From NCBI GenBank assembly GCA_965113315.1, contig OZ220372.1: a DNA stretch of 64,000 nucleotides. One strand, written 5' to 3'. Positions 26,330 through 60,261 of the stretch are shown piece by piece; within the stretch, counting starts at the first letter, position 1; each line of letters opens with the position of its first letter. The position numbers and the translations under genes are program-made. The notes below the pieces were generated by a model that made no database searches, was not told the DNA's origin, and saw only the letters and a list, made by a program, of their open reading frames with translations. The stretch comes from Podarcis vaucheri. Taxonomy: Eukaryota.

Positions 26330-27740
26330 TCCAGGCTCAGATGAAGGGGCTCTGGCGACCCCCCGCGCCACAACTCGCTCTCCCAAGGACGTGTGTAAAA
26401 GGTTCCCTCCCTCCCAGCGTGTAAATAACGGCTCCCCCGCCCGCCCGCCCCGCTTCCCCCGGATGTCTCGGGAGCTCTTCTTCTCCCACAAGGCCGCTCT
26501 CTCCACAGCGGGGCCTGGCGTCGCCGCCATCCTCCTCCTCCTCCTCCTCAGGCCCGCAAGCGCCTCCCGCCGACCGGGCTCCGCGAGACTCCTCCGCGCC
26601 CGCCCGAAGAAGCCAGGCCGCGTTTCTTCCCCCTCAGAGGCTCTGGCGGACGACAGGCGCCTGCAGGCCGGCACCGAGCGCTGGTCCCGCGGTTACTGCC
26701 GGGCGGCGGCGGCGGCGAGGTCACGACGGCAGCGGCGGGGTCAGAGGGTAAAGGTCGCTCCCCCAGCATCCTCCGTGCAGGGTGCTCAGCCATCTTGGAT
26801 CCTCGGGACAAGAAAATTCATGCGGTGAGTTCGGCCCGATTCTCCTTCCCCCCGCCGCCTCTCCCCCCCGCCGCGGCCCAGCTCGGCAGCTCCCGGGGGA
26901 GCTGGCGGGCGCCGGGGGAGGCCTTCCCGACGGCTCAGGCCCTCTTCGGGCTGGCCGAGGCCCGCTTCATCCCGCTCGGTTTCCGTTTGCTTTTGTCTCT
27001 CTCTCTCTCTCTCTGAGGGAGAGGAGCAGGGAGGGGGGGTGAGAAGAGATGCGTGAGGGGAAGAGGAGGAGGAGGGCGAGCGAGGCGACGCGCAGGCTCT
27101 GAGCAGGCAGCCCCGAGGCCCGGCCCGGAGCAAGGAGGGGGCGGGTGGGAAGCCCCGCCGCGGGAGGCGGCACCTCGGAGGCCCGTCAGGGCCGCGTCCT
27201 GCTTCTGCCCGGCCGCTCCTCCCCTGGGCCCGCTGCTTCCGTTCCCGCCGCCGGCCGACTCGGGTCCTGCCTGCGCCTCCCGCCCAGCCGCCGCTCGGCC
27301 TAGTCGCGGCCGCCTCCGCTCTCCTCCCTCTTTCCCGCGCTGCTGCTGCCCTTTAGGCCACCCGAGTGCGAGCGCCGCGTCCCCCCCGATGCCGGAGGCT
27401 CCGGGTAAGGAAGCGACAAAGCAGAGCTCTTTGCCCCTTCCCGCCGCCTCGCGTCTTTCTCGCCTCCCAAGCGGCCTGTTTATTAGGATGGAAGGCCCGG
27501 GATGGAGAAGGGGGGGGTCCCTTTGCATTTGCCTGGGGGGGTATGGGGGGTGTTTCGCCGCAGCCGTACGACCCAGCGGTTGCGAAGAGCCTCCTTCCGG
27601 CCCCCGACGAGGTTTGCAGAACAAACTTGCGAGTGAGCGGTTGCGCTCTCTCTTCCAGGACGAGGTCTTTCTTGCGTGGATGGGCTTGTTTTTGTTTTGC
27701 TCGCTCGGAAGCGTGCACTGCAGTTCCCCCGCGGTAAACT
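26330..27740. promoter_or_regulatory. CpG island / CNOT2 promoter
   Basis: Very GC- and CpG-rich against an AT-rich, CpG-depleted background. GC boxes ~26434-26453, YY1-type motifs GCCATCTTG (26789-26797) and GCCGCCATC (26523-26531), and an E-box CACGTG just upstream at ~26170. Confidence 0.9.
26650..26824 (+). other. CNOT2: CNOT2 non-coding exon 1 (5' boundary uncertain)
   Basis: Lies in the CpG island and ends GGACAAGAAAATTCATGCG|GTGAGT (consensus donor at 26825). This terminal sequence matches my recollection of the human CNOT2 5'UTR. Confidence 0.75.
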
Positions 27741-29368
27741 GATAACGTGTTTGTTTGTTTGTTTGTGTGTGTGTGTAAATAGTAACATTGCATTTGGGGG
27801 TGGGGTGGGGTGGAAAAGCAGCTCCCTGGAGGAAGTGGCAAGGCTGCCCTTTGTTCGCGTTGAAGCTGTGTGTAATAATGTGGCCGATCCTGTCAACGTT
27901 TAGTGAGCAGGAGTGAGGTTTTTGATGAGACTGAGATGGTTTGGGCCATTAAGGAGTTTTGATACCTGGCTGCTTTTTTTCCCTTTTAAGTTCGAAGTTG
28001 AGGCCTTGTATGTAGCACATCTTTCAGCCCTGGCAAACTGCAACTTGCAAAACTGATCATGTTAGAGCACAGTGGGTGCATTGGAGCTTCTCCTGCCTAG
28101 TCCCTGCTTTTTAAGCAAATATCATGGTGATTCTTACAATTGCATGGTGGTTCTTGAAGTAATATATGTTATGTGGCATTCCAGAGTACCATACTGTAGA
28201 CCTTAACATGCTCTTGTAAAGTTTATAGAGGAGTTGTAAGCATCGCAGGCAGCTGGTTGTTTTGGTCCTGTGTGGCCTGCTGGCATCTAGATTTTAGGTA
28301 TAGGCTGTAAGATTCAGAAACAGTTTTGTGAGTCTGCTGAGCTTTCTACTTGGAATTTGTGTATTGTTTCAATCCCTAATTTACAGTTTGTTTTTCAAAA
28401 AAACTTATGGTGGGAGTAATACTGAGCATTAATTACTTGTGAAATATTTGGGGAGGGGAGTGGAAAGTCAGTCTTCTTTTGCTGCTGGTAATTAATTTAA
28501 TCTGTGTATACACACACACACACACACACAGAGTAATCAACATTAAAAGACTACATAGAAGCTGTTTTGATATGATACACAAAATAATACATCTGATCAT
28601 AAAGCACAAATCATTTCTAAAAACAATGTTCACTTTGTTTACTATTTGGTGAAAGACAACAACAAACATTGGTGTTCCTAAAATAGAAACTTTCAGCTTT
28701 GATCTTAAAGATGTCATGAATGTGTGCAGGGAAATCTTTTACATACCATTGTTTAAGAAAAATCATTTTTAAGGGAAAGTTAATAAAGAGCAAATGTTAC
28801 TGATAAGGCTGGATAATGAAAATTGTATAACTAATGCCCACCAATAGATTTCTAATACAGTTTGATGTAAAATGTCAAGCAGGTTATACCTTTTTAAAAA
28901 AAAATAAATCAGAAATGGGTATTCAGCTCTTAATGAGATATGCATAGATTCTACCAAAGTCCATGTAGTGTAAGTTCTAAAAGCTACTCTGATAGTTTGT
29001 GAGGGTGAACTTCTACTTCAGTGACTTCAGAAAATTGTTACAGATCATGACTTTCTTCTTCCTGTTGATAAAATATTAGTGGTGTGGCTTTTTCAGAAAG
29101 AAATTGAATAGAATATTTTTTCTGGAATTTTTATGTGTGCAAATGGGGATAATTTCATCAGTAATTTTTCTGATGTCATAAAGTTTGATCTAATTACAGA
29201 CTGTTTATTTTACTTGTATTTAGTGAGAAAAGCTAAAAAGTTGCCTAATATTTTTTGCAGCTGGGATCCATATATTGTTGCTGATGGACTTCTTAAATGG
29301 GAAATTTTCCACAGAAAAACAAAGCACTGGAAATTTTTTCATCCATCACCATTAGTTATGCCTTAGAG

Positions 29369-29869
29369 TAAAGGTTTTCAACCTTTTTGAGTCCACAGCT
29401 CCTTTGACCTAGCTACATTCTTTCTGTGGGTCTTAGGAGCCCAGTTATGTCGTTATGTCACCCTTTGCCTGCAGAGTCAGCAGCCCCAAACCCCCTTTCA
29501 AACATGCTCCCTTGTGGAGTGTTCCCTCAGCCTCCTCTTCTCTCTCCTTTGGAGTCCTGGGCAGCTGCAGCTGCCGCCCCCATTCTCTGAGCTGCCCCTC
29601 CGCCCCAAAGAGAGGTGCCTTCTCACACTGCCCTGCAGGACTTGGGAAGCACCCCCTGGCCAGCCCCCGAGGCACCATTCCCCTGAGGAGCTTGTAGCCA
29701 GTGGTGCTGTAACAAACAGTTGTGTAAGTCTTTTGGAGGCAGAGGCGCAAGAGGGCATCAGAGGAGGGAAGAAAGGAAAGAGGGACAGAGGCCAGTGTTG
29801 CCTACAGCACCCCTGACTATCATTCAAGGCACCTCAGGGGAGCCATGGCACACTAGTTGAAAACCACTG
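29369..29869. mobile_element. hAT-Charlie-like non-autonomous element
   Basis: ggttttcaacc / agttgaaaaccactg. TSD CCTTAGAG / CCTTCGAG. Confidence 0.75.
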
Positions 29870-32800
29870 CCTTCGAGGTTTCTTCTCATTTTAAGCAAGA
29901 CATGATGTCTAGATTTATGTACTAAAGTAACTGCAGAAAATGGTTAGTAATTATCAGGAGTAGTTCTTAAGCTCAAAAAGTTGTACTTCAATGATGCTCC
30001 CTGAAAAGTTGTCAGATACTCATGTAACTGAAGCAGAGGTCTTCTGATGTCTCTGGTGGATATTTTTATACCGTAAAGTTAGGCTTTCCATGGTGATGAA
30101 GGAATGGGTGTATGGCTTGTGTATGGATTCACTGCACAAAATTTTGAACTGTTTAAAGACTGTAACCTTGAGTACAAACAACTTACCTGTTAAACTTGAG
30201 TAACTAAAAGTTGCATGGAGTAGGTGACATTTTCTGGAATTACTAATATATAACATAATGATTGATATTGTCCATCGTTATGCGTAGAGTTGGATTCAGA
30301 GCTGGCCTTTCTATAAATGGAAGGGACTGCAATCCATTGGAGGCTCCTGCTGATGGAACTGGGGAGCAGGCGGGTGGGAGGAGGCTGATTCTCAGTGCAG
30401 ACTCCCACACCACTTCACCGACTGTTCAGAAGGGTCTCTCAACCCTCTGGAACAGACTTTCCAGGAGAAGGATAGAATTCACAGAAAGCAAGAGGGCATC
30501 CTGTGAGCCCTGTTCCACTCAAGGGAACTCTGGATCCAATTATAAATTACTTGGAAATCATAAGTTGTGGCAGTTACTTCATTTGCAGAGCAGTCCGTGC
30601 ATGTTTACTCAAAACTAGTTCCACTGTTTCAGTAGTGCTTACTTCCATGTAAGTGTGCCACTTAAAGTGGCACATTACCATGTTCTACAATTTGCCATGG
30701 AGATACTTTCCTCTTTGCTTATTAAAACTGCAATTCTGTGTACATGTACCTGGAAGTAAACCTACTTTAATTCAGTTACACTTATTTCTGAGTAAACATG
30801 CAGAGAAGTGCATTCCATGTTCACTAGAGTATCTGAAATACAAAAATTAATGATATAAAATCAAGTTTCTTTCAAGGATTCAAAATAGATATTCACAAAG
30901 TTACCACACTGTGACCATCACTGTTTCTTTATTTCTTAAGTCCTTCATAAAATTGTTTGCAGTAGTTTCAGAGTAATGCAAGTGTGAGTTTCTTTCTCTC
31001 TTTTAAAAGGCTATTTAAGGCAACTTAAGATGAACATGTAATGGTTATTTATGATGAAATTAATATATTAGATAATTTGGTCTACTTATGTGATATTTAC
31101 AGGCAATAAAATTCCATGTACTGATTGACTGCAGTTTCCCAGAACATGTATATACAGTAGATGCTTTCACAATAATCAAATATTATTTCTGTACTACTTA
31201 AGTAACGTGTTGTTTACATGTTACTTTCACATGGAGTTGCTTTCTGTGTAGACAGTATATAATACTTGAGGCAGTCTTTGTCCTCTGAAACTCTCCTGCA
31301 CTTCCTGGTTTGTTAAGGTATCTCAGCACACGTTGTGACACACTAGACGTGAAATTTCATGAGGGTGAAGGCGATAACAGTTGTTTGTATAATGAGATGT
31401 CTTCATAGAATGAAGAAATAGTATTAGAATGTCAAAGAGGGTAGTGAATAGTCAAGTTAATATATTATGGAGATTCTACCCGTTTCTATATGTATGTTCA
31501 CCTGAGCATTTTTAATTTATCACTTTAGCTAGTTGCTTGCTTCTGTTTTTAGCAATTATGTGTGAAATACACTATTTATGCCTGCTCAGAAATGAACCCC
31601 ATTGAGTTCAGTGGTGTTACTCCCAGGTGAGTGGATATAGACTTGCAGCCTCGGGTATCGATCATAGTTGATACTGTTATTGAACAGTTTTAGTGATGAA
31701 ATTGAAATGCTTAACAAGTAGCCTGTGACATCATTAAACTTCTTGGCACATTTGAACTAGCTTTAAAAGTCAAAATTGTACTTTTACAGGTAATAGAAAG
31801 ATTTGCAACCTAATTCAATATTTTGCATAGGATTTGGCCTCCCTGCAGGTTCCTTGTGATAAAAAGCTTCTATTTATTTCCGAGTAGTGGACAATGCAAA
31901 GCTCTGACGTCCACAAGTAGTAGTCTTGTGTGTTGGGACTCAGATATGTCTGCCATTTAAACTTGCCCTTTTAGCATACACATACCGTTAAAAACTTGTT
32001 TACATTTGACTGGTAATACTTTTGTATATTAAGTACTTCAAATTAGGTTATTGAAAAGCTAAACTAGTAAATTTATTCATTTAGATTTAAAAACATTACA
32101 GAACATCCTGTTTAACTTTATGTATTCAGGGTTGTATCTAACTAAGCCATATTCTGACTAGATCCACTGAAATAAATGAGCTTAAGGTAGCCATAGTTTT
32201 GAATGGGTGTGGTTAAGCCACACTTGTTTGGATACCACCCTTGGTTCTAAAATCAACTTTGGGGCTTCCTGTGATTTTATTTATTACAATAATTTATATC
32301 CCATCTTTCTATGGAAACTGTGTGCCGTTTAGTTGTTACAAATAACAGGACAGACTTCCTGATCAGAAAATATCTGACTGTGTTCTGCCAGGTGATTATA
32401 AGCTACATGCTTCCTTCAAACAGTTGTGGTTTGTGAGGAGTTGATTTAAGGGTTGGACCTCTTCTCTGGATAAAATTGTATATTAGAATTCTGTTTTCAT
32501 TTTAAAAAATATTCATCCTCAAACTAAATAAATCTGCAGGCCTTGAATGCAACTGAGTTGGCGAGCCTCTGTCCATAGCTCATACAATTTCCTTGTCTTG
32601 GCAGAGGGACTGTAATTAATGATTTTTAAAACAGTTATTTGGGTTATGAAGTATACAAATGCTAGGAGGCTCTTTTGAACTAAAGAATGTAAAAACAGAA
32701 TCTGTTTATAATGCTGCCAGGTAGCCAAATGAACCTCTGCCTGGCCTACTAGTGTGCTTTTGGTATGCAATATGCAGATACACCTTTTCATAGTATAGAG

Positions 32801-33073
32801 GTAGATGTTGTCACCTGCTCATGCCTGCACATCCAGTTTCTGTTAGAGGTACAGAAAATGGACAGCCCTGTGTTATCACTGTACATTAAAAGGTAATTTT
32901 GAAGATGGCAGGTTTTTATATTTTATGTGACCTTGAAATTGGTTGGCATTGTTAAGTTGCACAAGAATAAAAGGAATGGACTCTCTAGGTACCAGGGAGA
33001 GAGTAGTGCAGAGTGTGTAAAGTAAAATTTAACAAGAGACATTAGTTTTTAGTATCTTGGAAAGCTTTAAGTC

Positions 33074-34423: not shown

Positions 34424-34424
34424 A

Positions 34425-35568: not shown

Positions 35569-37541
35569 TACATAATCAAGGATTCAAGATGAGCTTAATA
35601 GATTGGAGAACTGGACCAAAACTAACAAAATGAATTTCAGTAGGGATAAATGCATGATTCTACACTTGGCAGGAAGAACCAGCTGTACAAATATAAGATG
35701 GGGGAAACTTGGCTTGCTAGTAGTATGTGTGAAAAGGATTGTGGAATTTTAGGTAGGCCACAAGCTAAACAAGAGCTAAACGTGAGTGTGATGCAGCAGC
35801 AAAAAAAGCTAATGCTAGTCCAGGCTGTACCAACAGAAGTCTAGTGTCCTGCCTGTTCAAGGGAAGTAATGGTCTCTCTGTATTCTGCCTTGGCCAGCCC
35901 ACATCTGTAGTACTGTGTCCAGTTTTGGCCACCAGAATTTAAGGATGTTGACAAGAAGCTACAAGAGAGGAGATTCAGACTAAGCATCAAAAAGAACCTT
36001 CTGACAGTAAGAGCTGCTTGACGGTGGATTGGGAGCCCCTTGGAAGGTGGAAGTTTTTAAGCAGAGTTTGGATGGCCATCTGTGATGGATGCTTTAGATG
36101 AGATTCCTTCATTGCACAGCGTTGGACTAGACTAGATTCATAAATATGTGCAAAGAGTTGAGAAGCTGCTTTCATTTCATTCAGACCTTCCATTTTCTGA
36201 AGACCTTGAGGCTTGCCATAAAAATTCAGAATAGGAAGCAATTGGTCTTTCAGACACTAATACTGTTTAGATAAATAGAAGAAGTTATACTGTTGTTTTA
36301 AGAAAAAATACATTTACTGGGATTGGAATAGAATTAATCATCATTTACTCAAGTTACGTTGATGCTTGCTATGTGAAGTAACAGTGGGTAGAATTATAAA
36401 GTGTATTTGATATTCAAATTTATTGCAACTTCCTAATTACATTGTGGTGGTGTTTATATCTTTGAGCCTTTTCTCCAGAAATTATTTTTTTATGTTTATG
36501 TGTGAAAATGCTTCTAAGCTCAGATAACATAACTTACTTTTTGTTTGTTACAATGTTGATCTTTTCTGTTATCTTTTCTTTTTTTGTTTCCTAATTGTCA
36601 AATATATATATGTACCAGGGGTTGTAACAACTTACATCTTCATCTTTGGGTAGTTGTTGTTTCAATAAAACAAAGGCGAGTTATATTTTCACAAATTTAC
36701 CATACTTAACCACTTTTATCAGCTGTTATACGTAATAGGTTATACCAAACTAGAATGCTCAGGAGTTCCACTGAAATCAGTAGGATTGATTTTTGGTGAG
36801 TCAGTTCTGAGTATGACTAACAGTGGATATCACCCAATATATTTCATGTTCTTGAAGTACCAGAAGAAACTTAGCTACAACTCTAGTTGGAACAGGCACA
36901 CTTTAAAGGTGAAGCTGGCCACATTCCCACTGAATTTTTTGGGCAGATTGTGTCAAAGAAGGAAATACCATCTAGTACATATACCTTTGGGAGATGCTAA
37001 ACTTTTGAGTTTGAATTTTATGAGCAGAGTGTTTACCTGGAAATAAGTTATTAGAGCAGTTTGTACAACAGTTGTTCGTATGCTGTATTGAAAATAGTGC
37101 AAAATATAAAAACCACTGTTTTACTCATTACTCCTTACCCCAATAACTTAAAGTGGTTTGGTCTTTGCAATCTACCACATTTCTTAGCTTCTCTTCCCAT
37201 GTGATGTGAGAGGGCGCTTTTATAGAATAAAAACTAAAATTTACCTGCTTTTGTACAGTTGTACCATTTTTCAGCCAAGAAAATACATGTGCAGAATAAA
37301 GAGGAAAGGAAACAAGCATTGAGAAGTAGTGTATAGATGTACTGGGTTATTTCATTCTTTGTGTCCCTGATCTTTACAATGGACTAAGGGCTGTACTGCT
37401 AGGTTATTTGTTCTGCCTGTATAAAATGGTAGCTTACAGGTTTTTTTTTTACCATGAAAACTAGCCTGGAAGAGTTTATCAGTGGGCCAGTGGACTGTAC
37501 AAATGGTGGACTGTACACATTTTCTTTTTGTTTTGTTTCAG

Positions 37542-37649
37542 ACGGCTCAAATCATATGCAGCAAAAATTTCTCCTTTGATCAGACAGTTTAGACATGTAG
37601 TATTCAGCTGGTGGGTTGGGACTCATTGCTGGACATAGTCCGATCAAAG
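37542..37649 (+). other. Candidate 5'UTR cassette exon of CNOT2 (108 nt)
   Basis: Long polypyrimidine tract ttttctttttgttttgtttcag| and donor AAG|gtaggt. Confidence 0.45.
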
Positions 37650-38639
37650 GTAGGTTACAACAGCAGCACTACTACAAATGATAAAGAAATTAAGAAATGG
37701 ATCCTCAGATGGATGTCTGGGTAAAGGTGGAGCCTGGGTTTGAAAAAAGTTGAAGACTTCGGCCATAAGGATTCAGATGATCTGAGTTGTTTTGGTGGCA
37801 AGCTGATTGTAGAGCCTTACATGACTGTCTACAGTTATCTTCTTTCCAGAGTGCACCATGGGTTGGATGAAAGTTGTAGCATCCCTTTCTGTATCAGAAT
37901 TCAAGGTTTTGTTATTTCCAAGAGTTGAAAATAGGTCAAGCATATCAATCCTAAGAACTTTCCTGAAGAGAACTTGTTTTGAGGCTCTGTAAAGTAGCGT
38001 GTGTTTGCAGTACTTGTTAGAACACGTTTGAGAGAGGCTGGAATTCAAATTTTGTGCATGATCTTCCTTATGCTGATGAACCTGTTGAATATCTGCTTGA
38101 ACCAATCTGCTTTTTGACGGTTCAAGTGAGGTCATAGACCATCATTATGAGTGTGTCTGTATCATTTGAATTGATATTGACTGCACCACCAGCAAGAAAT
38201 GTATGAAACACCACCTGAGCATCCCCCCTCTCATGTTTACAGCTCAAGATCACTTTTATATCTTCCCCTACAGTTACGTTGAAAGCTTTTGGTAGTTGAT
38301 TGTATATAAGGTGAATGAGGCTGAACTACATGTACACTTATGATCAGCCCAGATTGATCAAGTGAGTCTGCCTTGGAATCTATTCCTCTTCTATTCCTAG
38401 TCTTGATAACATTTACAGCTGCTTCCTTTTAAGTCCAGTGCCATTAAGGGACAGCTTATGGAGTTGCATAGAACAATCATAGTGTCAGCCTTCTGCTGCA
38501 AGGTTTGCTACACCTTCTGATTCTACTCCAGGTTGAACACACCATTCTAGTTCCATGAGTCCACATTGCTCACGAAGAAGCATTTAACCACATCATAATA
38601 ATGTGGAAATCATCCACATCCGTAACTTGAATATGGCTT

Positions 38640-40350
38640 ATTTTTCGAGCAATTTGGCTCCTAGCTTTTATATCTCACTTTCTAACACTGGTTCCAAACT
38701 GTGAGTGTTGCCACAGGGAAGCCCTACATAGAGTGCATTGCAGTAATCTAATGATGTAGTACCAATGCAGGAGTAAGGTCACATTCCCCTTGTTCCACTC
38801 TCTGGAAGGGTAATCTGTCAGGGCGACCAAGACAGACTCAATCCCATGGCTTGGCCTGAACCCAGATTGGAACTGATCTAAAGAATTTGTGTCATCCAAG
38901 AATGCCTGCAGCTGTCCCACTACAATCCTGTCTGCCACCTCCCCCAAGAAGGGATATTTAGTACAGTGGTACCTCTAGTTACGAACTTAATTAATTCCAG
39001 AGGTACGTTCTTAACCTTAAACTGTTCTTAACTAGAGGCATGCTTTCGCTAATGGAGCCTCTTGCTGCTGCTGCCCCGAGGCACACGATTTCTGTTCTCA
39101 TCCTGGGGCAAAGTTCTCAACTCGAGGTAACTCTTCCAGGTTAGTGGTGTTTGTAACCTGAGGCGCTTGTAACTTGAGGTGCCACTGTAATTATTCCAGT
39201 CCAAGGGGTCCAGAGCTGGGGTTTTTAAGGAGAGGCTGCACCATGGGAAGTGTTAACCATGCTTTGGAGCTAAGCAGTCAAGCCTTAGATTTAATAAGCC
39301 AGTTGGGGACAGGGTTAGACGGCATATGGTTGGATGTATTACTGCCAGCACTTTGTCCACATCAGTTGCCTGTACAAGCTGAAACCAATCCCACAGCACA
39401 CCACCAACTCTGGTTTTGGATACTTCATCTGGAACTACAATAATTGAAGAGTCAAGGTCACTGGGAAGTCAAGCAACCCTATCCTCAAATTGTGTAGCCA
39501 GTTGGTCACAGCAGGTCCTTGAATGCACCAAAGTTCCCACCTCTAGAGTGGGAGTCAGTAACCTCCAGACTGTGAAATAATTTTGCCAGCTTGCTATTAG
39601 AAGAAGCAATCCAAGCTGTGATATGAGCCTTCTTTGCAGCCTGTACTGCACCATGGTAGACAAGATTATGCCCACTGACAAGCGTTCAATCTGCTTCAGA
39701 GTCAGACTTGAAGCATTTGCGCTTTAGTCTTCATCTAGTTTGCTTCATGGTACGAAGCTCTTCAGAATACAAAAGAGCCACTGGGGCTCCACAACGGCAG
39801 TGAGGACACTTAGTGGTGATCATGTCAATCACTCATTTCAGCTCACTATTTCATAGTGAAACTGGAGCTTTGACAAGATTATCAGCTTTCTCTTCTGAAA
39901 GATCCCCAGTTCAGATTCAGGAACCCCTCACATTCCATCAATCCCTGAGGATAGACCATTCAAAAAGGCCCATGACCTTTCGGGGGAATAGCAGTAATTA
40001 GTCTAATCTTCACCAGGTAATGATCCAACTAGAACAAGGAACTGCATTGCGCCCTGTCACAACTTTGTTTCACTGCTCATCACTTGGAGTAAAGACTACA
40101 TTGAGGGTGTGCACTGCTCATTTTGTTGGACTGATGACTGAGACAGCCCCATGGTTGTCATGAAGACTATAAAGTGCTGAGCAGGCCTAACATCAGTTTC
40201 TGCATGGATACTGAAGTCCTCCAACACCATGCGAGATACAATTTTGGCCAGCTTAGTCAGGGGTGCATTTGGGCAACAGGGGGCTTGATAGACCACCAGC
40301 ACCTTCAGTCTTCCCAACACCAGGCTGAGACCCTCTAAGAGAATACCAAC
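38640..40350 (-). mobile_element. Fragmented L2 LINE (RT piece ~38640-39290; endonuclease piece ~40000-40350)
   Basis: QLQAFLDDTNSLDQFQSGFRPSHGIESVLVAL and LVVYQAPCCP..EDFSIHAE remnants. The intervening sequence is unassigned. Confidence 0.6.
38964..39187. mobile_element. Tigger-like MITE nested in L2
   Basis: ta|cagtggtacctc ... gaggtgccactg|ta; family of 45711 and 49155. Confidence 0.85.
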
Positions 40351-41443
40351 ATGAAACTTACTCAGGTTTGTAATTATTCTAATGAAGGAGCTCTCACCCG
40401 GTTATTGAACCCCTGTAAAGCATTTCTATTTTATAGTTTAGCAATAGTAGAGCACCAAAGCTACCATCGAAGCAGACAATGCCAAACTCACAAGAATGCT
40501 GCTTCTTTTTAGAATGTGTCAATAAAGCAAATTTAGTTTTCCTCCTTGCCCTTTCTTCATCCATTAAAAATTTATCCCTGAGCCACATTCTAGTCTCCAA
40601 AGTTGAGGATGCCTAGAGTGGAGTGGAATAGATGGTCTTGTGTCACAACTGTATGTTAAAATCACTCCTGTTGTTATTGTTTTTCAAAACAATGTTGTAA
40701 GAAGTCTGCTCCCAACCACACTGCAGGAAGAGAGAGGATGGTCTTACAGAGTTCATGCAACCGACTTCCTGGTTTTTTGTGCCAGATCATTGCTTTTCGG
40801 CATGGAAGCTGATTTTCTTCCCTTGCTTCTGTTCAACATCTTTCCACTCTTTGATATATCTATTGCAGCTGTTTGCACTGCTAAAAAGAGGCAGACTGCT
40901 TTAAGGTTAAATTTTAAAAGTTGAAATAGATAAGGAGTTTCCATCTTTAGAACAAAGTTTTAAGAAACCTTTGGCTCTTCGGGTATTCTCTCTATATTGC
41001 AATTGTCTTAAAAGATAGCTAGAAGTACAACATTGAGTACCGGTACTTGGTCTCTGGGCTATTGTGTAGATCACTGAAATGACACAAAGTTTTTAAAATA
41101 TATATAAAAAATAGAATGTAGAACTACGGTAATGTAGAACTGCTTCATGGAATATCACAAATATAGTTTCTATATTCTTTGGAATCTAAGATGATGTCTG
41201 TATGTATTCTATCTCGTCTTCTGAAGTCATTCATATTTTTCCCCATTACAGTGATACTGTTCCATTCTCATTCATCTAGGAGGAAGTAAGGAGTTTAGAT
41301 ACTAACAGAATATATCTAACACCTTCTGACAGCAAGAGAAATTCATAAGATATTAATCCTGCTGCACTTGTGTATCAGCACTAATGTTTTTGTTTTTTTA
41401 AAAAAAGTTTGGTTAGTTTGGAGGTTAAAAGTTGGCTCTCCAG

Positions 41444-41512
41444 AAAATTGGTTTGGATGAGAATGAGGCGGCACTCGAATGTCCGTGAGATTATAGAAAT
41501 TGAAACTGGGAG
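41444..41512 (+). other. Candidate 5'UTR cassette exon of CNOT2 (69 nt)
   Basis: ggctctccag| ... GAG|gtaacc. Purine-rich, CpG-retaining block in AT-rich intron. Confidence 0.35.
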
Positions 41513-44500
41513 GTAACCACTTAAAAACACAGAAGTAGATTTTATACTGGAAGTGCTGATAAATTTAGGTACGTGTATTGAAGTTGGCTTCCTTTTTGAA
41601 AGGTCTAGCTTTATTGGAAAGTTATCTTTCTAAAATGTATGCTTATAGTTTTGTTTATAAAAATACACACAAATTTGAAAAGTGTCCATAACTTGAGATA
41701 CATATCAAATAAAATGTTGTTTTTAAAAAGTTGTCTTCTGTTTACTATTGGCAAGGGTTTCCCTTATTTCTAAATGTTAAGAGACAAAGATTAATTACTG
41801 GTAATTAGCTTCTGCAAAACTCCTGTTGACAGGATGGCTTGGAGAAGAATTTCTCCTAGGTTGAATTTTCTGTATTGCTGTCTTCTATTTACTTTATTAG
41901 GAAAGTAAATTACATTTTAATTCTTTGTTGTGTGGACAGTAGGGACATTTCTCTTTTTTCCATTGTCTTGTTCCAGACATCTATTCAAAATGGAATCAGT
42001 TAGCCCCATCAGTTTAAAACAGTTGCATGTTTTTGAAACCCCATTTTACTTTAATTGTCATAAGTGCACATATTGTTTAGCTGCAGTGTTTCATGATTGT
42101 TAATATTTCTAAGGAAAATACCCAAAACTCTTGAAAACACTTTGAAATATCTGAAGGTAAACTAGTGTTATAATTGTAGGCAGTGACTTAAACTTGAAAA
42201 CTACAAAATAATTTAATTATAATTAATCTTTCAAAAATACGTATTTTAAAATGGCTTTCAAATAGCACTGCTACACTCATTAAGTTCCACTGATAAGACA
42301 AGTTTGAGTTAAGTGTGTGCCAGATTATGACAAATAAGCTCTACTTTTTTATTAACAATTTTTAATTAAATTTTAACAATGAAAAGCAAAGAACAAAATT
42401 ATTGTTAATTACAACGATAAATAACTCTTAAACCTCTTACCTTAGTGTGGGTTGTAATGAACCCTAGCTACCTTACTGGTGTTGCTGTGCACTCCAGCGG
42501 CTTTTGGAAATACTTTTGAGCAAACATGAACCATCATATATTCCACGTTCTCTTCACAATTGTGGGACCAATTGTCCTGCGGTGTTTCACCTCCCACCGC
42601 CATTTACAATTTCTTATAATTTACATTAACTTACTAAGCTGCTTTACTGCTTTTGAAACGAATGGGAAAGGGAAGCTCTGAAATGCCAAAGGTAACTGGG
42701 GTCTGTTCTATTCCCATCAACTTCTCAAAATAGGATAGAGAAAACAACAGCATTCCAGCTGTAGAATAAATTCCCCCTTTTTTTGTAATACCACTTAACG
42801 GATACTGGAGGGTTTTTGGGGGGCTGCTGGTGGTGGAGGGAATTAGATCTGTACAGTCCTGTATCAGAAAACAGAGAAACCCCAATACAAAGCATTGCAG
42901 GAGTCTGTGGTGTTGAATCTCAGGCCTCCCCGTGCTTGGAACTCTTCCCTAGGAAACACACCCTCACTTCCCATGCACATCTCTCAACAGCCATGCTTCA
43001 CACACCCCTTGAATGTTTTTGCCTAGTTGGAATGCTTCCTTGAACTCTTGTTGCTGCCTGTTGCTTGCCTGGATGGAGGATAGAGAAGTGTATGTGAGCG
43101 TATATAGAAACTAACTTACTCTACGGAGGTAAATTTTACTTTTATTGCTCTGTCCACTTTTGCCCCTGGCTCCGCCTACCACTTGCATGTGACTCTCAGA
43201 AGGTTGCTATGAAGGCACTTGGGCTGAAAATTTTTCCTCTCTTCTGCCCTTTGGGACTAATCCTACTCCTAGTTGGGCTTTTCTGGACGTAAGCATTAAC
43301 ACTCTCATAAGGAAATCAGTTATAACCTTTATTTCTAGCTAGAACTTTAATGGGATCTTTGGACCCCAATATCAGATTGTTACCATTAAAAAATAAAAGT
43401 GTTGAAGGGTTAAAATTGCATGGCATCATTACGCAGCTTGAAGTGACGCTTGTTTTTTGGTTGCAGTTAACACAGATAAGAAGTACTTCCAAGTAACTCA
43501 CTGCATTTCTGTAAAAAGCGCATATAGGTGATAATTTAGCCATAGCTTAACTTCTGAAATAGAATTGCAAGAGTTATATTGACATTAAAGAACAAAAAAA
43601 CTTCCAAGAAAGTATTTCATGATTCCTGAATTGCAGGATGGTGGTGTAGATGACCCTCATGGTCCTTCCAACTCTACAATTTATAATTCTAGTCTGTCAT
43701 TCTGTGTATAGCTGAGGGTATATAAATCCATTTTCTGAAAACTGCTGTGTATCGCACTGTTCGAAAAAGTCATCCAAGCCTCTGGAGCAGATTTAGAGAA
43801 CAAAGGGCACTGCATAGGAAAGTGAAATCACCTCCTTTCCATCAATGAAAACTTCTACTGGATCAACTATCCTGCTAAAATCTGAGATATTGTTCACAGT
43901 AGCATAACTGATGCTGGAATCTGGTCCCACTATCTGGAAGCACGTCCCACTTAACACAACTAGGCTTACTATTGAGTAATCACTCATCCTTGGGACAGAA
44001 GTTAAGGACTTATTGCCCATCTTTTCTAAGTGAATAATATTGAAGTTAATATTAAACCCTACAGTTCATTCTTTAGACTGAAGTAACTGTTTACATGAAC
44101 ATAGATAGTGTCATCAGAAAATAGATATATGCTGAAAGCTAAAATGTGTTTCCCATTCAATCGATTTTGCAGTCTGGTAAATGTCTACTCAGAAGTAAAA
44201 CTTGTGGAGTTCATTTGAGCTTGCTATTAAATAATTAGGTATAGGACTGCAGGCTTTGTGGTACAACTCTCAACTTCTTAGCAGAACAGTGCAAAGTATT
44301 TTATCATTGATGAGGACAAATCTGCTTGCAGCAGAGGAAGTGATGGAAAGGAGAGGCACTCCATTAGCTTCTCTCCCTGAACTCCGATTTCAGTTGATCA
44401 TTAGAAGAACTATGAAAAACTATTTGTACCCAAGTTAGCTTGTTTTTCCTCTTTCCTCCTCATCACTTTTTCCTTTTGTGTCACATGTTTTAGAATGATT

Positions 44501-45610: not shown

Positions 45611-45710
45611 GCTTTTCTGCTGACCTGCTTAAGAAAGCTGAAGATGGAGGTGTCTGTCATCAACCAACATCTGTACTAACCAGATGAACTGTTTTCCTGA
45701 CTGGTTAATA

Positions 45711-47730: not shown

Positions 47731-49154
47731 AGGGGGCCATAACTAACATTGTGTACCCTGCCACAGCCCATATCCTCTGGCATTCACAGATGACTTTGAG
47801 GGGAGCTCAGGTTCACTTCTGAACTTGCACTGGGATTTGCAGGTGTTTCTGCCTGCAAAGGTACGGTAAGTGAAGAACTCACTTTGTGCTGTGTTTTGAA
47901 GACCCTCAAAGGCAGTGAGAGGCTTCTTTCAAGTGTAGGAGGCTACCACCTTAAAAGTCTTCTGTAGGTTTCTCTCTTTGGGGAATGTACATATGATAAG
48001 ACAGTCATGCAAAAAATGAATTTAAAAAGCAGTGTTAGGATGAATCTTTGGCATGTTTAACAAGGAAATAATATCTCTTGTTAATGAACTAGACAAAATT
48101 GTTGTTGATGCAGACTATTCTGTTCTTAAGTGGCAGTCCTAAAATTCTATTTTCATCAGAATTTGAATTGACTGTTAGTTGTACTTCATTTCTTTTATTG
48201 CTGTAGGGAGCCACGGTAGAAATTGTTTCATAACTTTGCTGCAGCATCAGTTAAAATGTTTATTCTGAAATCTGCTATATTATTTGTATTTAATTTAGTA
48301 TCAGCACAAATTGATTCATCCAGATTTTGTAGTAATGGGAGAGAAATCCGGAAAGCAGTTTCCCATTCACCCCTTTTTATAATTTAACACATTTTGACGT
48401 CCTAATGTTCTATTGGGATTGCTACATTACATTACATTATTAATTGTGTCAGAATAACAATACAATTTTCTCTAGTTTGTCTTCCCATTGGCCCCCTGAG
48501 TGGCAAGTTGACAGCAAAGGCAATGGCAAGCCACAAATACTCCTTCTAGGCTGATTATTTTAAGCTTGCTTGCTGATTCTAGCCACATAGGCAGCTTTTC
48601 AAATGAGTTTAGCTATTCCAAAAGCTGATCAGAAATCCGTGTTAAAATTCTTTCTCACGGATCACCTATTGTAACCAATGGCTTTGCAACATACTTAAGC
48701 CACCTTGGGTCATCTCAGGGTGGAAAATTAAAAAATGAAAATATTGAATATTGTTTTTCATATGTGCTGCATGTGAGTTGAGTAAATATTACTCCTTTCT
48801 TTATTTCATTTATTTGATTTGGTTCGCCTATTCTAACCTGCCCAGGTAGGAGTAAATGCCTTCCTCTGGAATGTAATTGATTTCCTCTTGTTGCTATCCT
48901 GGATGTGAAAAGCCAATTCAGAAAAGTTACCTGGGTGTGAAAAGTTCATTTTCAAATAAATGAAATAATTGTCTGATCCTTCCACTTCCACTTGATGCAG
49001 CCTAACATAATAAAAAGTTGTCAAAATAACACATTCAAATACCATCTCTAGCATGGAATGTTTTGTCATATTGTATTCTGGGTCTAAATACTTTATTTTT
49101 TTTAAGGGGGTTTGTACGTGAACAAGTTGCATAGATTTCTGCAAACATTGTATA

Positions 49155-52278: not shown

Positions 52279-52533
52279 GAGCTGGTACCTCTGGATGCGA
52301 ACGGGATCTGTTCCAGAGCCCTGCTCGCATCCAGAAGCGAACGTAACCCGCATCTGTGCGTGCACGGGTCGCGATTCACCGCTTCTGCGTATGTGTGTGA
52401 CATCATTTTGACCATCTGCGCATGCGCGAGCAGCGAAACCCAGAAGTAACGCGCTCGATGTTACTTCTGGGTCGCCGCAGCATGCAACCCGAAAACACTT
52501 ATGCTGAAGCTACTTCAACCCGAGGTATGACTG
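52279..52533. mobile_element. Tigger-like MITE
   Basis: ggtacctctggatgcg ... cccgaggtatgactg|ta; CpG-rich internal palindromes. Confidence 0.7.
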
Positions 52534-53605
52534 TATTGCAAGAAGAAGGGGACTGAGGATGGAGCTGCTCTTGGTTTTTAGGATAGCTACATTGATGAAA
52601 CTCCTTTAGCACCCTTGACCAGTTCTGCACAAGCGGCTTGAAATGAAAGACTGCAGCTTAACAACTTTTTTAGTTTAAAGCTTATACACTTTAGTGTATA
52701 AAGTAACTGCTATTGAGGCCTCAATCCCTATGCGCACTTAACAGAGAATAAGGCCCTTTGAATTTAATGGGGCATCCGTCTAAGTGAAGATGCATGCATA
52801 GCATCAAAGCGTGCCCTTTTTTCAGTTAAATTTTACACATTGTTTGTGGCTTCTCTCTGTATCCTGTTAAGATCCATATTCCTGGGCTGCCTATGATGTG
52901 TTATGCCCTCTGTATGCTGTTAGAGAAGGACAGATTAAAGGAAGTGAATCTGGGTCACTTGCTTATCATAAAGGAAGGCTCAGCCCTTTAGCAACTGTAC
53001 TGAGTCAGAGTTCTTTTCATGTGCTAGAGAAAGTAGTAATTCCCTTGAATTGTTGCATTAAGAGTACATTTCACCTTAACATTTTATTCTTATGGACTGG
53101 CCCTATCGAGGAGAAGCTCGTGAGGCAAACAAGCGGTCATGGAACACTCTTCTGTATCCACAGTCTTCAAAATTTAGGGAGGCAAAGGAAAAAAACAACC
53201 AGTGGGAAACTAAATTATAACTGTAAAATACTGCATAACATTTTAATGTGTTTCAGTAACATTTACATCTATATCAACGTAGTACTTTCCAGTTCACAAA
53301 AAGCAACTTGACAGTATCTGCGTGCCTTTTAGTTGATTTATAAACAGAAGTGACTACTGTGGGAATGAGTTCCACTGTCTTTTTATGTGCTGTGTGAAGG
53401 AGACGAAAGAAAGTACTACTCCACACAGCGCATAGTTAAACTATGCCATGGAATTTGCTTCCATGGGAGGTAGTGATGGTGACCAACTTGGATGGCTTTA
53501 AAAGGAGATTAGACATTTGTTGTTGTTGTTGTTGTTGTTGTGTTTCTGATTCATTTCAACAGAAGAAAAAAACCTGAAAGTAAAAAAGAAAAGGAAAAAG
53601 AATTA

Positions 53606-53774
53606 CTGTATTTTTTGCACCATAACACTCACTTTTTTCCTCCTAAAAAGTAAGGGGAAATGTCTGTGTGTGTTATGGAGGGCATGCCTACGGGTGGCAT
53701 GCCTACGGATTTTCCTCCTCTATAAACTACATGCGTGTTATGGTCGGGTGCGTGTTATAGAGCGAAAAATACGG
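53606..53774. mobile_element. Mariner/pogo-type MITE nested in an L1-like tail
   Basis: ta|ctgtattttttgcaccataacac ... gtgttatagagcgaaaaatacgg|ta. Confidence 0.75.
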
Positions 53775-54899
53775 TACATATTACATAATATATTACATTA
53801 AAAAATACAATCATTGATGGACTTCCTTCCTCTCCTTTCTTGGTTTCTTGTATATTCCACTTCCTCTCACTTTTTCTTCGTTTTCCCAGTCTTTCTCTCC
53901 TCCTCCCATTAATTCTAGTTCTAACTTAACACTTCTGAACATACTAAGATGAGACAAATTCATTGTTCTAGGCGCATTTTGCAACAGGGAATTTCATTAA
54001 TGCGAGCAGCTTCTGAGGTCTGGGCTCAGTACTGCATCTAAGATTTCAGATTAAAACTGCCACTGCTGGAAGGAACCTTTTTCTGCCTCCCCACTGCCAG
54101 CCATTCTGAAGACTGAAGAAGGGACCCTCATAAGAATATTAGGGGGGTGGGCAGGGGAAGTATTTTTTTAATATATTTTTTTGCAGCCTTCAGATGAGGA
54201 CTGGACTATGTGATTTTACCAGTTTTTGAGGAGCAGGCTGCAGTTTATTCATTTTCGACTTTGCATTCTTGTTATAAAAAAGTGTGCCTAGACAGTACTT
54301 TGTGGCACCTATAACCTAGGTTTAAGGTGCCATTTAGTTCCTAGCTTTCATATCTTAGTTGCTAACACTGATGCCCATATTAACTGGCAATATTTCAGTG
54401 GCTGGGTGGTTGTTGTTTTGGTTACCATTTGGCACACTAAAAAACAAAAACAAACCCAGAATACCACCTCCATCCATGCCCATGCTTGAGATTTGTATTG
54501 GCACTTGGTGGGATACTGTTGGAGACAGTGTTCTGGACTCGGTGGACCCTTGACCTGGTCAATGTATTTGGTATGTTCCCAGTAAGTAAATAAGAAGCAT
54601 ATAAGTAGAAGACTTGTAGCTAATTTTTGATATCCCTTTTTTAATCCTGTAAAACATTAATTAACATTGGCAATAATACCTTGCCGTTAAATAATTCATA
54701 TATTGTTTATGTTGTACCACATTTCATAATGGCAAGGTCAATGCTTTTGAAGATCCTTTCAGTTCTGTAAGTAACATATAAATTAGCCTTTGACTTTACA
54801 ATATGATTTTTCATTTTATAGTGAAATAAAACCTGTTGTGTTTGCTAAAGTTGTTGATTCCCTCAACTTTTCTAATAACTTAATCTACTTCATTTACAG

Positions 54900-54969
54900 G
54901 AAGTGTCCATCAAAGCTTGCTTGCTTCAACAGACACAAAAAAGTTAATGGGCAAAAGTACAGTTTTTAG
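54900..54969 (+). other. Candidate 5'UTR cassette exon of CNOT2 (70 nt)
   Basis: Branch-like ctaat/ttaat, acceptor ctacttcatttacag|, donor TAG|gtaggt. Confidence 0.45.
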
Positions 54970-57551
54970 GTAGGTAGATATTTTCTTAGTGTGTGTTAGG
55001 TTTTCTAGGAAAGATTTTCTAGTAATATTTGTAAACAGATAATAAATAAAGTTCTTCACTGATAAATATTTGATCCAGTCCCGGATAGAAAAGTAACCTG
55101 GATGTTTGTAGGCAATTTTGCAATCTTTTATTTTAATTTATTTTTTGTTGAACTTTGCATATAATGGCAATTCAGTATTGTGGAGGGTTTGTAAGGTGAG
55201 TGTTTTTCTTGAGAAAACATTTTGGAATACTTGGGAGGGGGGAAATGCCCAAATGGGAAGTTTGCTTCCAATATTATAGGTCTAATAAGGCAAATTGCTC
55301 CTTTTAAACTGAGTTGGTAACACTTTGTTGTGGTTGAATTACCGTTTTACTTAGTCATAACTGAAGTGTACCCTGTGTACATTTTTGTACATTATTTTAG
55401 TGGTTTTGTCATTGGCATTTTTAAAGCCACCTTGAGTGCCCATTGGGCCTTTTGTTAAAAGGTATGTTTATTCAATGTATTTATTTGAACCTTAATATTA
55501 AAGTGTTTATTCAGTTCCTCTCACTGATCCAACATTTGAGACTGCATTCACATAACTCTTCAGGGAAAAGCACTGCTCAGCTGTTTGGAAGTAGGAGTAG
55601 GCAATTGTTTTCAGTTCCTTGCTTTTCCATCCTGTTCCAGCCAAGCAGTTGAACAGCTGGATTTTAAGATTTTTGGAAGGGGCTTTCCACACGAAGCTCT
55701 GATTGATGCACATGTGTTCCTTCTTTGAGATTGGGATACTGTCTGGTATTTGTGCTAACATATTGTAATGGAAAACCTGTTCAGCCTTAAGAACCCTCTT
55801 GACCTTAACAGTCCTATGTATTGTTTACACAGGAGTAAATCCCACTGTGCTTGCTTACTTCCTGATAAGCATGCATAGGATTGAAGACTTAGAGCAGGAT
55901 TCAGTGAAGACTTTTGCTAGGGCAGCAGGGATTTCTCCCTTCCCCGTCCCCTGTGTATTACCCAAATTGGGCTCTGGTGGGGCTGGGAGAACCAGAAGGA
56001 CAATATGCGAACAGGAGGGGGGGTGGAGATGTTCCATCTGGCAAGTTGAAAAGCTTGTTGTGCTGGAATGATTGCCACAGAGCTGCATTGAATCCCAGCA
56101 AGTTCAAAACCTCATGAGTTCTGCAAACTTGAGGGAAATCGCTTCCATATGTACCTGCATATCTCCTTTGATCTCTTTCGGAAGTGGTACACCGTATGCC
56201 ACCACTATTGGAATATTTTAAAGCTATGTCCTAATATCTTTGATTAAAGAGTTATTCAGGAAAATGTCTCCAGAGAGTTGTAGGTGGTAGACCTCCCTTT
56301 TATAAGCATAAGAGAGCAAAGTTTTGATGAGAAGACTCTCCCTCGGAGGAAAAATATTTCAAATTCCTAAGCGTCTGCATCATGTACTAAGGACAGTACC
56401 CTGAGCAAACTTGAGGGAGAGCAAGAATGCCAAATTGTTTGGTGTCAGAAGCAAATGTTAAGCTGTTTGGAGGAAACGTACAGAATTCCCGCCCGCCCTC
56501 CCAGCTCCAATCTATAATTAATCAGACATGATTTGAATTAAATATCTTCAAAGAGGAGTCTTACAGTTTGTAACCTTAAACACTAGATATCTAAAATCTG
56601 AATATGATTTTTGCCTTCCCTTAAAGAGCTTGTTATTCTTACAAAATCTGTTCTGCCCTTTTATTACTTCTCAGACAAGATGTAAACTACTGTTGAACAG
56701 ATCATATACTAACTACCCCATTATGACAACATCTTTCTCTTAGCTGCTGTTACCACAGCCATGTGGCTATTTGTATGCCTATACTAGGGAATGCAAATCC
56801 CTTGTCTTGGCTGGGGAAGGGTACTCAAGTTAATGTTTTCCCTTGCCACTTAGAGATGCTTCAGGTTTCACTCTTTCTTCCCTTGTGGGAGTGCACATGG
56901 AGGCAATTCTCGTGATGAAAATAAAAATGATGAGAGTGCCTAAACCACACTGGCTTGTGGTACAGACCTAGTTTTTCCAAGAATTCCAGAAGTAGGTTCA
57001 TATATCTCGTTTATACTTGTGAATAGACTCCAGTATAAGTTATTGCTAATAATACCTATTTCAAAAGCTGTGCTTGTTAAGAAGTAGCCATCGGTAGATG
57101 GAGTATGGGTGAGGAATTACCACAATTTCTTAGTTTTGGTGGAATGAGTAAAGATTTATAGTTCTTTGAATTTAAGAAAATCTTACAATTTAAATCCTTT
57201 AAAAACAGCCATAGAAGAATACAGTATAGGAAAACTAGGAGGCTAGAACTAATTATCACTGGAGAAAGAAAGTGCTTTGATCTTTGAGACTGAGACTAGG
57301 AAGGTAAAAATCATGCCTAATGGAAGATTCTTCAAAGAGAGCAAGCATTAGCGTAACATGTGCGAAATGACAATGCTATTATTGCTCCACTCCCTGCTCC
57401 AAAAAGGAGGAAATTATATTTTCCTTTGGCTAAATATGGCAACTCTGCTCAGGAGATGGGTGGACTATCATTGTCTCTATAGTTGATGTGCAAATGGGGA
57501 AACATCCCATGAAAGTTCCTTATGTTTACTAGGCAACCTTGGCATTATCGG

Positions 57552-57694
57552 ATCATAGAGTTGGAAGGGACCCTGAGGATCATCTTAGTCCAACCCCTTG
57601 CAATGCGGGACTATGCAGCTGCCCAATATGGGAATCAAACTTGCAGTCTTGGCATTATTAGCACCACACTCTAACCAACTGAGCTATCCAGGCC
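57552..57694 (-). mobile_element. tRNA-Ile-derived SINE with CR1 tail (Squam1-like)
   Basis: Reverse-complement homologue of 10604-10755. Confidence 0.8.
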
Positions 57695-60150
57695 TGGGTG
57701 ATGTATCGATACGTCGCTCAGAACCGGTTTGAGGGGCAGAGCATGATGGTGCCTTCACCTGGCAATATATTGCAGGTGAGGCTTGCTTGGGCCTCCTTAC
57801 TCCCTGCACCAAAGGTACAGCGCAAACTTTTCTGAGGAACAAGATCAAACTTAAATCTGCTATGGGTACTGATTTATGTCTTTCTGCTGGCAGTTTGTAA
57901 CTTTAAGTGCAAGTATTGATAACTACAAAGCAATTCTGCCTCCCCCCTTTTTTTCTTTAGTGAGGGCAATGCAATGGTAGTAATAGTAGGGTAGGGTAGT
58001 GTTATAATGAGAAGGGAGTAAGTTGGCAAATAACATTCTTTCTGGCTTCACAGCATGCAAGATTACCTTGGTTGACTCTACTCTTCTTCACCCTTGCTAG
58101 GAGCAGCAGCTGCCACCAACAATTTCTCAGCTCATCATCACTTTGCTCAGCTAGAGTAAAAGAGGAGATAATCCCCTTAGCCTGTTAAATACTGCATTCC
58201 ATTTTGTAGGTGATTTGTGAGCCAGTTGTGAAGTGAGAGAGCTACCTAAGTGTATTGGGAAAACCTGGAATTTACTTTTGTGTGAAATAAAAATTAGAGG
58301 AGTGAAGGGGGAACTGTGGATTCCATCCTGCTCACCCCCCAAAAGGCTTTCTTGTTTGTTTTCAGGGGGGGAAATGGATTATGGAATATTTTCTTTTAGA
58401 ATGATGGGAAAAAAATGTTTAAGCCAAGGTGTTCATATATTTATTCCCCTGAAATGATTTCTAAAAGCTATGTAACACAAAGGCTTTCTGTAAGACTATG
58501 TATAGTGTCAGATCATTGCAGCTCTTGTGCACTGAGGACAAACAAGCCCTGAGTTGTAAACAGAGACTACTACTATCAACCTTAAGAGCAAGATGCATTT
58601 GTGCCTCTAGGGGCACTGCCATTGTCACAGGAGGAAGGAAGGTTTCAGTGCCTCTTGTTGGCATAGTTGGTGCATCTGTTTCTGTCCTTCACTGGGCCTC
58701 AAAGGACTGGAGCATAGTACAGGGCAACAAAAAAGAGCTGAAAGTGTACTTAACTTACCTGTACGGTATATTTATTGAGTCTTTGTTGCCTAGTCCCCAC
58801 CTTTTCTCTGCTGTTTTTATGGAAATAAGTGTTTTATGTCTGCTTGACACTGTGAAGTACTGTAGGATACATAATAATTTTCTTTGTTTTACTAATGTTG
58901 TTTTGTTTCTTCTGTTTTTATCGGTTTTTGCCTGCTCCTCATAAACTAGCAGAACCAAAGAGGTTCCTTATAGCTCAGGTTCCTTACAGTTCAGCAGTTT
59001 GTAGCTCAGTTTGTAACAAACAAAATAAAAAGTAACTTCAATTTCGTCTTATTGTCTGACTAAACTGTTCTTTTCATATACCAAACATATATACCAAGAT
59101 ATAAATAATACAGTCTGTGTTCCTAATGTATGGAAATTGCTTTTAATCTGTAAAGGGTGAGAGAGAGAGCGCGAGAGCGCGCGCGCAATAACTTTCACTG
59201 AACATTAGTGGCTGGATATAAAAGAAGCTGGCCTAAGGAGGACATCATCATATATGACTTTGTTTTATCACTGTCTGGGCCCTTCATTGCTACAGTACTC
59301 CAAACACACATCCCTGTTGGTAAAGAATTAAGAATGTTACGACTAAGCAGAGATTTGTATTGTATGCATTTCTTAGCTTCCACTGCCCATTAACAAAGTA
59401 GGTATAATAGTTGCCTACTTCATGGTGTTATTGTGAGGACATACAAGTAGTAAATTAATTTGTGCATTTTTAGGAACACAAGGCAATTGATTATTTAATA
59501 GTAGTGTGTACAAATGAGTGGTGTAGACTGCAGTCCTATATCCACTTGGGAGTAACTCCCATTGAACTTCTGAGTAGGCATGTATAGATCAAACTTAACC
59601 ATCAATAGCTAGGGAACTGGTTTGCTGTTTGGCACTGTAGAATTTTGGTTTGAGAGAAGCTATACATTGTGCTGGGTTTAACACGTTTTGTTTTGTGGAG
59701 CTGGAGCTGCTACATAAGAATGAGTATGATTAGGTTCAGATATGTAACACTAAACTATGGCTTCGATGCTTCTGCTCCCTTCTTTGTCACAGCCACAAGA
59801 AGATTGGAAACTTTCATTTCTGTTTTCAGCTAACTGGTGATCATTTTAGCCAAACCCAGAAATGTGGTTAACTTCAACTGTGGTTTAGGGAAACAAATCC
59901 TGGTTTAAGTTCGGTTCATTCCCCAAATGAGAGATTCAAATATAATGAGTAACTTTGGTTTTCAACAAACAAATAGAAGCAAATGCTTCCTCTTGCCTGT
60001 GGTAGAGGTGTATTACAGTAAACCATAGTTTAGCAAATTGTTAGAACTGGAGTATGTATGTGTGTTTTTAAGCATCATTAAATTCAGGAATTGCTTTACT
60101 TTTGTTCCAGAGATTAATGCCATATTCTTATAATGCAGGTGACAAACAGC

Positions 60151-60261
60151 ATGTTTGGTGCTTCAAGAAAGAAGTTTGTAGAGGGAGTCGACAGTGACTA
60201 CCACGATGAAAACATGTACTACGGCCAGCCTTCGATGTTCCCACATCGATCAGAAAAAGAT
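60151..60261 (+). CDS. CNOT2: CNOT2 first coding exon (exon 60139-60261, 123 nt; likely start ATG at 60151)
   Basis: AG at 60137-8 and GTAAGT at 60262. The exon reads VTNS-MFGASRKKFVEGVDSDYHDENMYYGQPSMFPHRSEKD, near-identical to the recalled human CNOT2 sequence. The ATG has A at -3. Phase-0 end. Confidence 0.95.

Follow-up and report, generated by a model that had tools for sequence, protein, structure and literature searches.

Does a start codon that closes a leader exon have its reading frame chosen by splicing? The CNOT2 locus of Podarcis vaucheri raises this question. It lies in a stretch of 64,000 nucleotides (nt) of contig OZ220372.1 (assembly GCA_965113315.1), called the window here, and its first exon is separated from the first coding exon by a 33-kb intron. 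The initial annotation proposed that the ATG at the end of exon 1 forms a two-codon, reinitiation-permissive upstream open reading frame (uORF) when spliced directly. It further proposed that three cassette exons, termed blocks A, B, and C, convert this ATG into longer inhibitory uORFs, triggers of nonsense-mediated decay (NMD), or micropeptides. The exon-end element is real: it is a deeply conserved minimal uORF with a splice-dependent frame. Blocks A, B, and C are at chance level and unsupported as exons in this genome. The features that carry this argument are:

26820..26824, plus strand: ATG-CG at the end of CNOT2 exon 1, in weak context, with a strong GT donor next to it (9.7 bits); its counterpart in newt model P0196 is Met-Arg.
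37542..37649, plus strand: block A, a predicted exon of 108 nt, exon-like (8.9/10.1 bits), giving a 33-residue uORF; its 3' half and donor lie within a repeat.
41444..41512, plus strand: block B, a predicted exon of 69 nt, exon-like (6.7/7.0 bits), giving a 25-residue uORF; no read or contig falls on it.
54900..54969, plus strand: block C, a predicted exon of 70 nt (3n+1), exon-like (8.7/8.8 bits), giving a 24-residue uORF.
60139..60261, plus strand: first coding exon of CNOT2, with the uORF stop at 60140-60142, the main ATG at 60151-60153 (-3 A), and the next in-frame ATGs at 60214 and 60235.

Spliced directly to 60139, exon 1 yields M-R-stop, a 9-nt element whose stop ends 8 nt ahead of the main ATG at 60151. 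The unspliced exon end likewise reads M-R-stop. The context of the exon-end ATG is weak (-3 T, +4 C), and that of the main ATG is adequate. On the frames, the spacing, and the weak upstream context, a re-reading of the sequence agrees with the initial annotation. The direct junction is annotated in models of one lizard, two birds, dog, and one frog (P0037/P0131, P0027, P0034/P0208, P0186, P0201). On this junction the element is a 9-nt uTranslon (u9), composed of an AUG, one sense codon, and a stop, all of which the spliced leader carries before the main AUG. The u9 and start-stop elements (PMC13338717) are the same three-codon element, are reported to lower initiation at the main open reading frame (ORF), and are enriched in regulatory genes. 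The CNOT2 element differs from them in being split by the 33-kb intron after its fifth base, so that its reading frame depends on the sequence joined to it by splicing. The accessible main text of that paper makes no mention of CNOT2.

That the two-codon uORF permits reinitiation is doubtful. The optimum for reinitiation is cited as 80-90 nt, and efficient reinitiation has also been demonstrated at 42 nt (PMC6614817). The CNOT2 element, whose stop lies 8 nt from the main ATG, falls short of the distance that characterizes the permissive type, represented by ATF4 uORF1 and GCN4 uORF1. Because the uORF terminates so close to the main ATG, reinitiation there is expected to be poor. In addition, 9-nt uORFs are reported to lower main-ORF initiation, with an effect approximately 50% greater close to the main start and no particular dependence on UPF1 (PMC13338717). 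Given the 8-nt spacing, a braking role is more likely for the M-R-stop frame than a reinitiation-permissive one.

The reading that we favor, with a probability of roughly 55%, is that an old, weak-context ATG at the exon end forms a 9-nt uORF on the likely default splice and is likely a mild brake on CNOT2, whereas the three blocks probably represent pseudo-exons or splicing noise at low frequency. Scanning ribosomes would mostly leak past the exon-end ATG to the main ATG with its -3 A. Ribosomes that take the exon-end ATG would stop shortly before the main start and would mostly fail to restart there. CNOT2 output would be modestly lowered as a result, and some ribosomes may restart at codon 22 or 29.

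Judged from protein records, the exon-1 terminal ATG of CNOT2 is old, with a compatible pattern from sturgeon to dog. These records are main-frame gene models that read through exon 1 in sturgeon, bowfin, teleosts, frog, birds, lizard, and dog. Before the shared exon, 17 of 17 distinct read-through extension types end in [H/N/D]-[A/V], which corresponds to xAY-G with the first base free and leaves T or C open at the middle base (ATG or ACG). The base preceding the exon-end ATG varies (C, A, or G), and the A and the G are constant in all 17 types. Three more types that read through exon 1 continue into a different exon or frame and are excluded from this count. Among them, the Metynnis record P0167 points to ATG and the Pygocentrus record P0172 to ACG. 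Newt model P0196 translates the uATG frame itself, its exon 1 ending F-M-R exactly like the window.

Splice-dependent re-framing of this ATG is present in the gene models of other lineages, which are protein records and no proof of translation. In therian mammal and newt models, the exon-end ATG starts an N-terminally longer CNOT2 by way of an inserted exon. The proposal of a re-framed ATG holds for these models and is unsupported for A, B, and C in this genome. In newt proteins P0190, P0192, P0193, and P0197, the exon-end Met is the first residue, and 28 residues lead from there in frame to the shared exon. Among eutherian and marsupial models, 11 proteins of a single type, together with variants, begin with M-R, ten residues before the usual 540-amino-acid (aa) start. 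One DNA, read in two frames, gives both the peptide that follows exon 1 in rodent P0046 and the start of mammalian P0024 (none of 2000 shuffles was compatible); the mammalian M-R start is thereby tied to the end of exon 1. The ATG is probably re-framed also in the tailed frog (P0141/43/51) and in a record that clusters with lungfish (P0059), as their M-R starts suggest. The 550-aa mammalian models (among them P0024, XP_055252205.1, and P0129) and newt XP_069084434.1 (P0190) share with the window the ATG counterpart and the downstream exon. They differ in requiring an inserted exon that is open in frame; no match to one was found in this intron, and block C, whose phase places the exon-end ATG in the main frame, terminates on a stop.

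The mammalian (P0024) and lungfish-cluster (P0059/P0137) cassette peptides share a short C-terminal likeness (p 0.001 by shuffling, in one of 21 comparisons), so some cassettes may be ancestral. The records hint at an old origin of the mammalian first coding exon, followed by its loss in reptiles and birds. None of the 47 named reptile and bird proteins starts with the M-R extension and 15 carry some extension, among the proteins listed (at most 15 members per cluster). A tblastn search of this CNOT2 intron for the mammalian, newt, frog, and lungfish-like cassettes gave noise only among the matches listed. Intron blocks of 3n+1 length are open in frame in 9 of 66 cases on the sense strand versus 15 of 57 on the antisense strand, and their best cassette likeness is 22 versus 19, that is, none. 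Two sets of M-R starts were dropped as evidence: those of Alosa (P0168/74/77), where the read-through ends D-V and is incompatible with M-R, and that of Acipenser sinensis P0057, which shows no link to exon 1.

Several points weigh against a working uORF with inactive cassettes. Protein records mostly fail to separate ATG from ACG in fish, and the Pygocentrus record implies ACG. A manual curation of human ribosome profiling (Ribo-seq) lists a CNOT2 TTG uORF and, in the accessible part of its table S1, no CNOT2 ATG uORF (PMC9943669), so use of the ATG may be low. Conservation covers the whole exon end, and the ATG may therefore be a passenger. On the side of the cassettes, the sole unique-sequence RNA signal lies inside block A and no other genomic copy (≤3 mismatches, ungapped) explains it, so low-level use of A is possible. 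Read mapping covered 36900-42300, the part of the intron with blocks A and B.

The alternative that survives best is that the ATG is a passenger. Here, the 3' end of exon 1 would be conserved as DNA or RNA, as a promoter-proximal motif plus donor, and the weak ATG would have no measurable effect. The motif is presumably YY1-like. Tetrapods, fishes, and the newt read the conserved core in different frames, which indicates that the core is conserved as nucleotides. The weak context, the silence of the human curation on an ATG uORF, and the probable ACG in Pygocentrus fit this view as well. Set against it is the pattern of variation, in which the preceding base changes while the A and the G hold in every type counted. 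Upstream AUGs (uAUGs) are also generally depleted and conserved (PMC11057154), and the mammal and newt extension models start at this codon, though gene predictors pick any first in-frame ATG. We consider a passenger ATG unlikely.

Next is the proposal that A, B, and C are regulated cassettes that give inhibitory or NMD-triggering uORFs of 24-33 codons in this species. The coordinates and open frames of the three blocks are all correct as first described. All three are bounded by AG and GT with sites of usable strength, a property common to dozens of other intron blocks. Splice sites were scored with a consensus matrix in donor-anchored blocks of 40-250 nt over 26900-60100 (acceptor ≥5 bits, donor ≥7 bits). 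This gives 46 exon-like blocks on the sense strand versus 31 on the antisense strand, 85 versus 61 at a looser cut, and 25 versus 16 at a stricter one. Block A totals 19.0 bits (5th of 46), block C 17.5 (mid-table), and block B 13.7, with a donor just below the cut. The scores of A and C exceed the median of 13 real internal exons and favor the proposal. Other lineages' models have cassettes at this position, and sequencing in human has shown a rare additional exon that lies between exons 2 and 3 (PMC6396421).

The open frames are of the kind expected by chance. A uORF of at least 22 codons, or a frame that remains open, is given by 16 of the 46 blocks, and the probability that a random intron piece of equal length has a frame open to the same extent as that of A, B, or C is 0.18-0.29. 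In 12 comparisons of the A, B, and C peptides with four cassette peptides of other lineages, none passes correction (best p 0.04, uncorrected). The blocks thus lack the marks of a conserved-peptide uORF or micropeptide, and the suggested micropeptides show no significant likeness to those cassette peptides and are no longer than expected by chance. The longer inhibitory uORFs find no parallel either, since other lineages' models give in-frame N-terminal extensions instead. An NMD switch based on uORF length is doubtful; mRNA half-lives were not separated by uORF length, with no difference in their means, and reinitiation does not robustly protect from NMD (PMC10187673). Blocks B and C have no other genomic match in a repeat search that skipped common words. 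The donor of block A is repeat-derived and comes with a hairpin:

37590..37760: repeat element of approximately 170 nt, dispersed in the genome and bounded by inverted ends, which supplies the block A donor; 23 other genomic matches at 71-81%, aligned with five of them.
37573..37650, plus strand: imperfect hairpin in block A that pairs the exon side of the donor (-31.9 kcal/mol, z -3.86).

We take the element to be old and similar to a miniature inverted-repeat transposable element. Transposon-derived cryptic exons in 5' untranslated regions (5'UTRs) are a known class. Candidate A likewise has its donor in an old dispersed repeat and differs in that its splicing is putative. The 78-nt hairpin forms between unique DNA and the repeat end, and 14 of 716 intron windows in the hairpin scan reach z ≤-3.5. 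An Rfam scan of 27000-60100 found no match in block A at E ≤1 and nothing at the gathering score; block A thus has no known-family match to an intronic small RNA such as a microRNA or small nucleolar RNA, though the hairpin is present.

RNA evidence for the blocks is faint. The mapping used 4 of 24 runs. Two were raw RNA runs, with 12.8 and 12.6 million records (approximately 12% of each run), and two were contig sets tentatively taken as RNA. Intron pieces of sequenced organism A differ from the window by 0-3 letters in 126-271, which points to the same or a very close species. Reads resembling human DNA had been filtered out beforehand, and depths are given without a constitutive exon as the denominator for inclusion rates; the test is weak in either direction. 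The two bins on block A have depths of 0.29/0.10, 0.57/0.20, 0.70/0.24, and 0/0 over the four runs, a signal in three of them. In both raw RNA runs this is the sole signal outside repeat bins in 5.4 kb. The bin that holds block B has a depth of 0 in four of four runs, a weak negative. If equal footprints are assumed, the block A signal fits only 37572-37641 or 37598-37632, neither of which is at the splice sites of A. The 70-nt footprint 37572-37641 starts at the base of the hairpin. The total of run X22 falls short of one read spanning A, and that of X23 leaves room for one at most. Among the joints and loose ends listed, none falls at A or B (274 loose ends, one joint, and 986 pieces lie outside the list). 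That the three blocks are regulated cassettes is improbable, and they are probably not functional.

Other elements of the intron stand apart from the three blocks. A highly expressed repeat family at 38900-39250 collects thousands of cross-mapping reads and fold-back joints, with related copies at 45705 and 49153. The strongest intron hairpins, at 48635-48724 and 52415-52504, have z values of about -9 and -7 (15 shuffles), and the second matches mir-127 weakly, at a score well under the gathering score. On the minus strand, 57620-57693 is a tRNA-like match within a repeat (28.7 versus the Rfam gathering score of 29 bits), probably the head of a short interspersed element.

Exon 1 also holds other upstream starts:

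26795..26797, plus strand: strong-context TTG (-3 A, +4 G) located 30 nt ahead of the donor and absent from the initial annotation; direct splicing places it in the main frame, where it would add 14 residues.
26463..26465, plus strand: far upstream ATG that shares the frame and the stop of the exon-end ATG, with 121 open codons; relevant only if transcription starts above it.

The frame of the TTG is open for 132 codons and holds further strong-context near-cognates, a CTG at 26681 and an ACG at 26726. Should the TTG be the working start, direct splicing would give a 14-residue N-terminal extension, and inserted exons would make the TTG a uORF. The spacing from TTG to donor is the same in bird, lizard, dog, frog, and newt records, whereas the spacing in ray-finned fishes sets the TTG in a frame other than the main one. 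Initiation at TTG codons is usually weak. A two-exon CNOT2 TTG uORF in humans (chr12:70243451-70278191) was curated from Ribo-seq initiation peaks (PMC9943669, S2) and is absent from the high-confidence list, as far as that source was accessible. It has 60 nt in exon 2, by the exon start coordinate of PMC6396421, and the length that remains for exon 1 is hence divisible by three. We assume that it starts at the counterpart of the lizard TTG, from a presumed coordinate for the end of human exon 1. Despite its strong context, its in-frame position, and the human uORF, the TTG is very doubtful as the working start, given its frame in fishes, the usual weakness of such codons, and a human match that depends on a presumed coordinate.

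A broader scheme combines both starts. In it, the last 30 bases of exon 1 would be a two-start switch as old as bony vertebrates, with the TTG and the ATG in different frames and the phase of the next exon choosing between uORF and extension. Mammals, newts, the tailed frog, and a lungfish-like lineage would carry the ATG-framing exons, and rare A and C would be off states here, so that leader splicing would set both dose and N-terminus of CNOT2, a dosage-sensitive subunit of the deadenylase complex that shortens mRNA tails. This scheme is tentative and rather unlikely.

The identity of the gene is well supported. The exon at 60139 matches 73 proteins, the closest at 93-95% identity, and the named ones are nearly all CNOT2. 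A tblastn search with P0037, P0044, and P0031 finds the CNOT2 coding exons in order through the window and the adjoining loci L002-L003. Orthologous coding exons run through the NOT-box, as expected for the NOT2-3-5 family, and the homologs have PF04153. A Pfam search on five long frames upstream matched none of them. The remaining features of the layout are:

26400..27700: CpG island with the putative CNOT2 promoter region and exon 1; GC content 0.64-0.77 and CpG observed/expected 0.73-0.99 in 200-nt bins over 26400-27599.
62925..62991, plus strand: second coding exon of CNOT2, found by tblastn; the remaining exons lie beyond the window in L002-L003.

Within or beside the island, 27288-27404, 26939-27038, and 27659-27804 are high-scoring exon-like blocks. 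An alternative first exon could use the donor that follows 27404, and block 26939-27038 is open from the exon-end ATG into the CNOT2 main ORF.

The choice between a uORF and an N-terminal extension by 5'UTR splicing is a known mechanism class. In dosage-sensitive genes, uAUGs have been sorted into uORFs, overlapping ORFs, and N-terminal extensions (PMC11057154); in CNOT2 gene models, one uAUG changes class by isoform. That study differs in using one transcript per gene, and alternative 5'UTR splicing from one start site was not assessed; CNOT2 is unmentioned in the accessible text. No paper on a CNOT2 uORF or leader-splicing switch was found in the open-access literature, the supplements of PMC13338717 and PMC5570006 being outside the search. 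No CNOT2 uORF appears in the accessible supplements of PMC10032668 (one file in part), PMC11057154, and PMC6392083. Isoforms of CNOT1 have been discussed, and uncharacterized subunit variants may exist (PMC12746107).

The exon-end codon is common to fishes through mammals. Human CNOT2 is haploinsufficient (PMC9939052), and a leader element that sets CNOT2 output could therefore be a site where non-coding variants or splicing changes matter.

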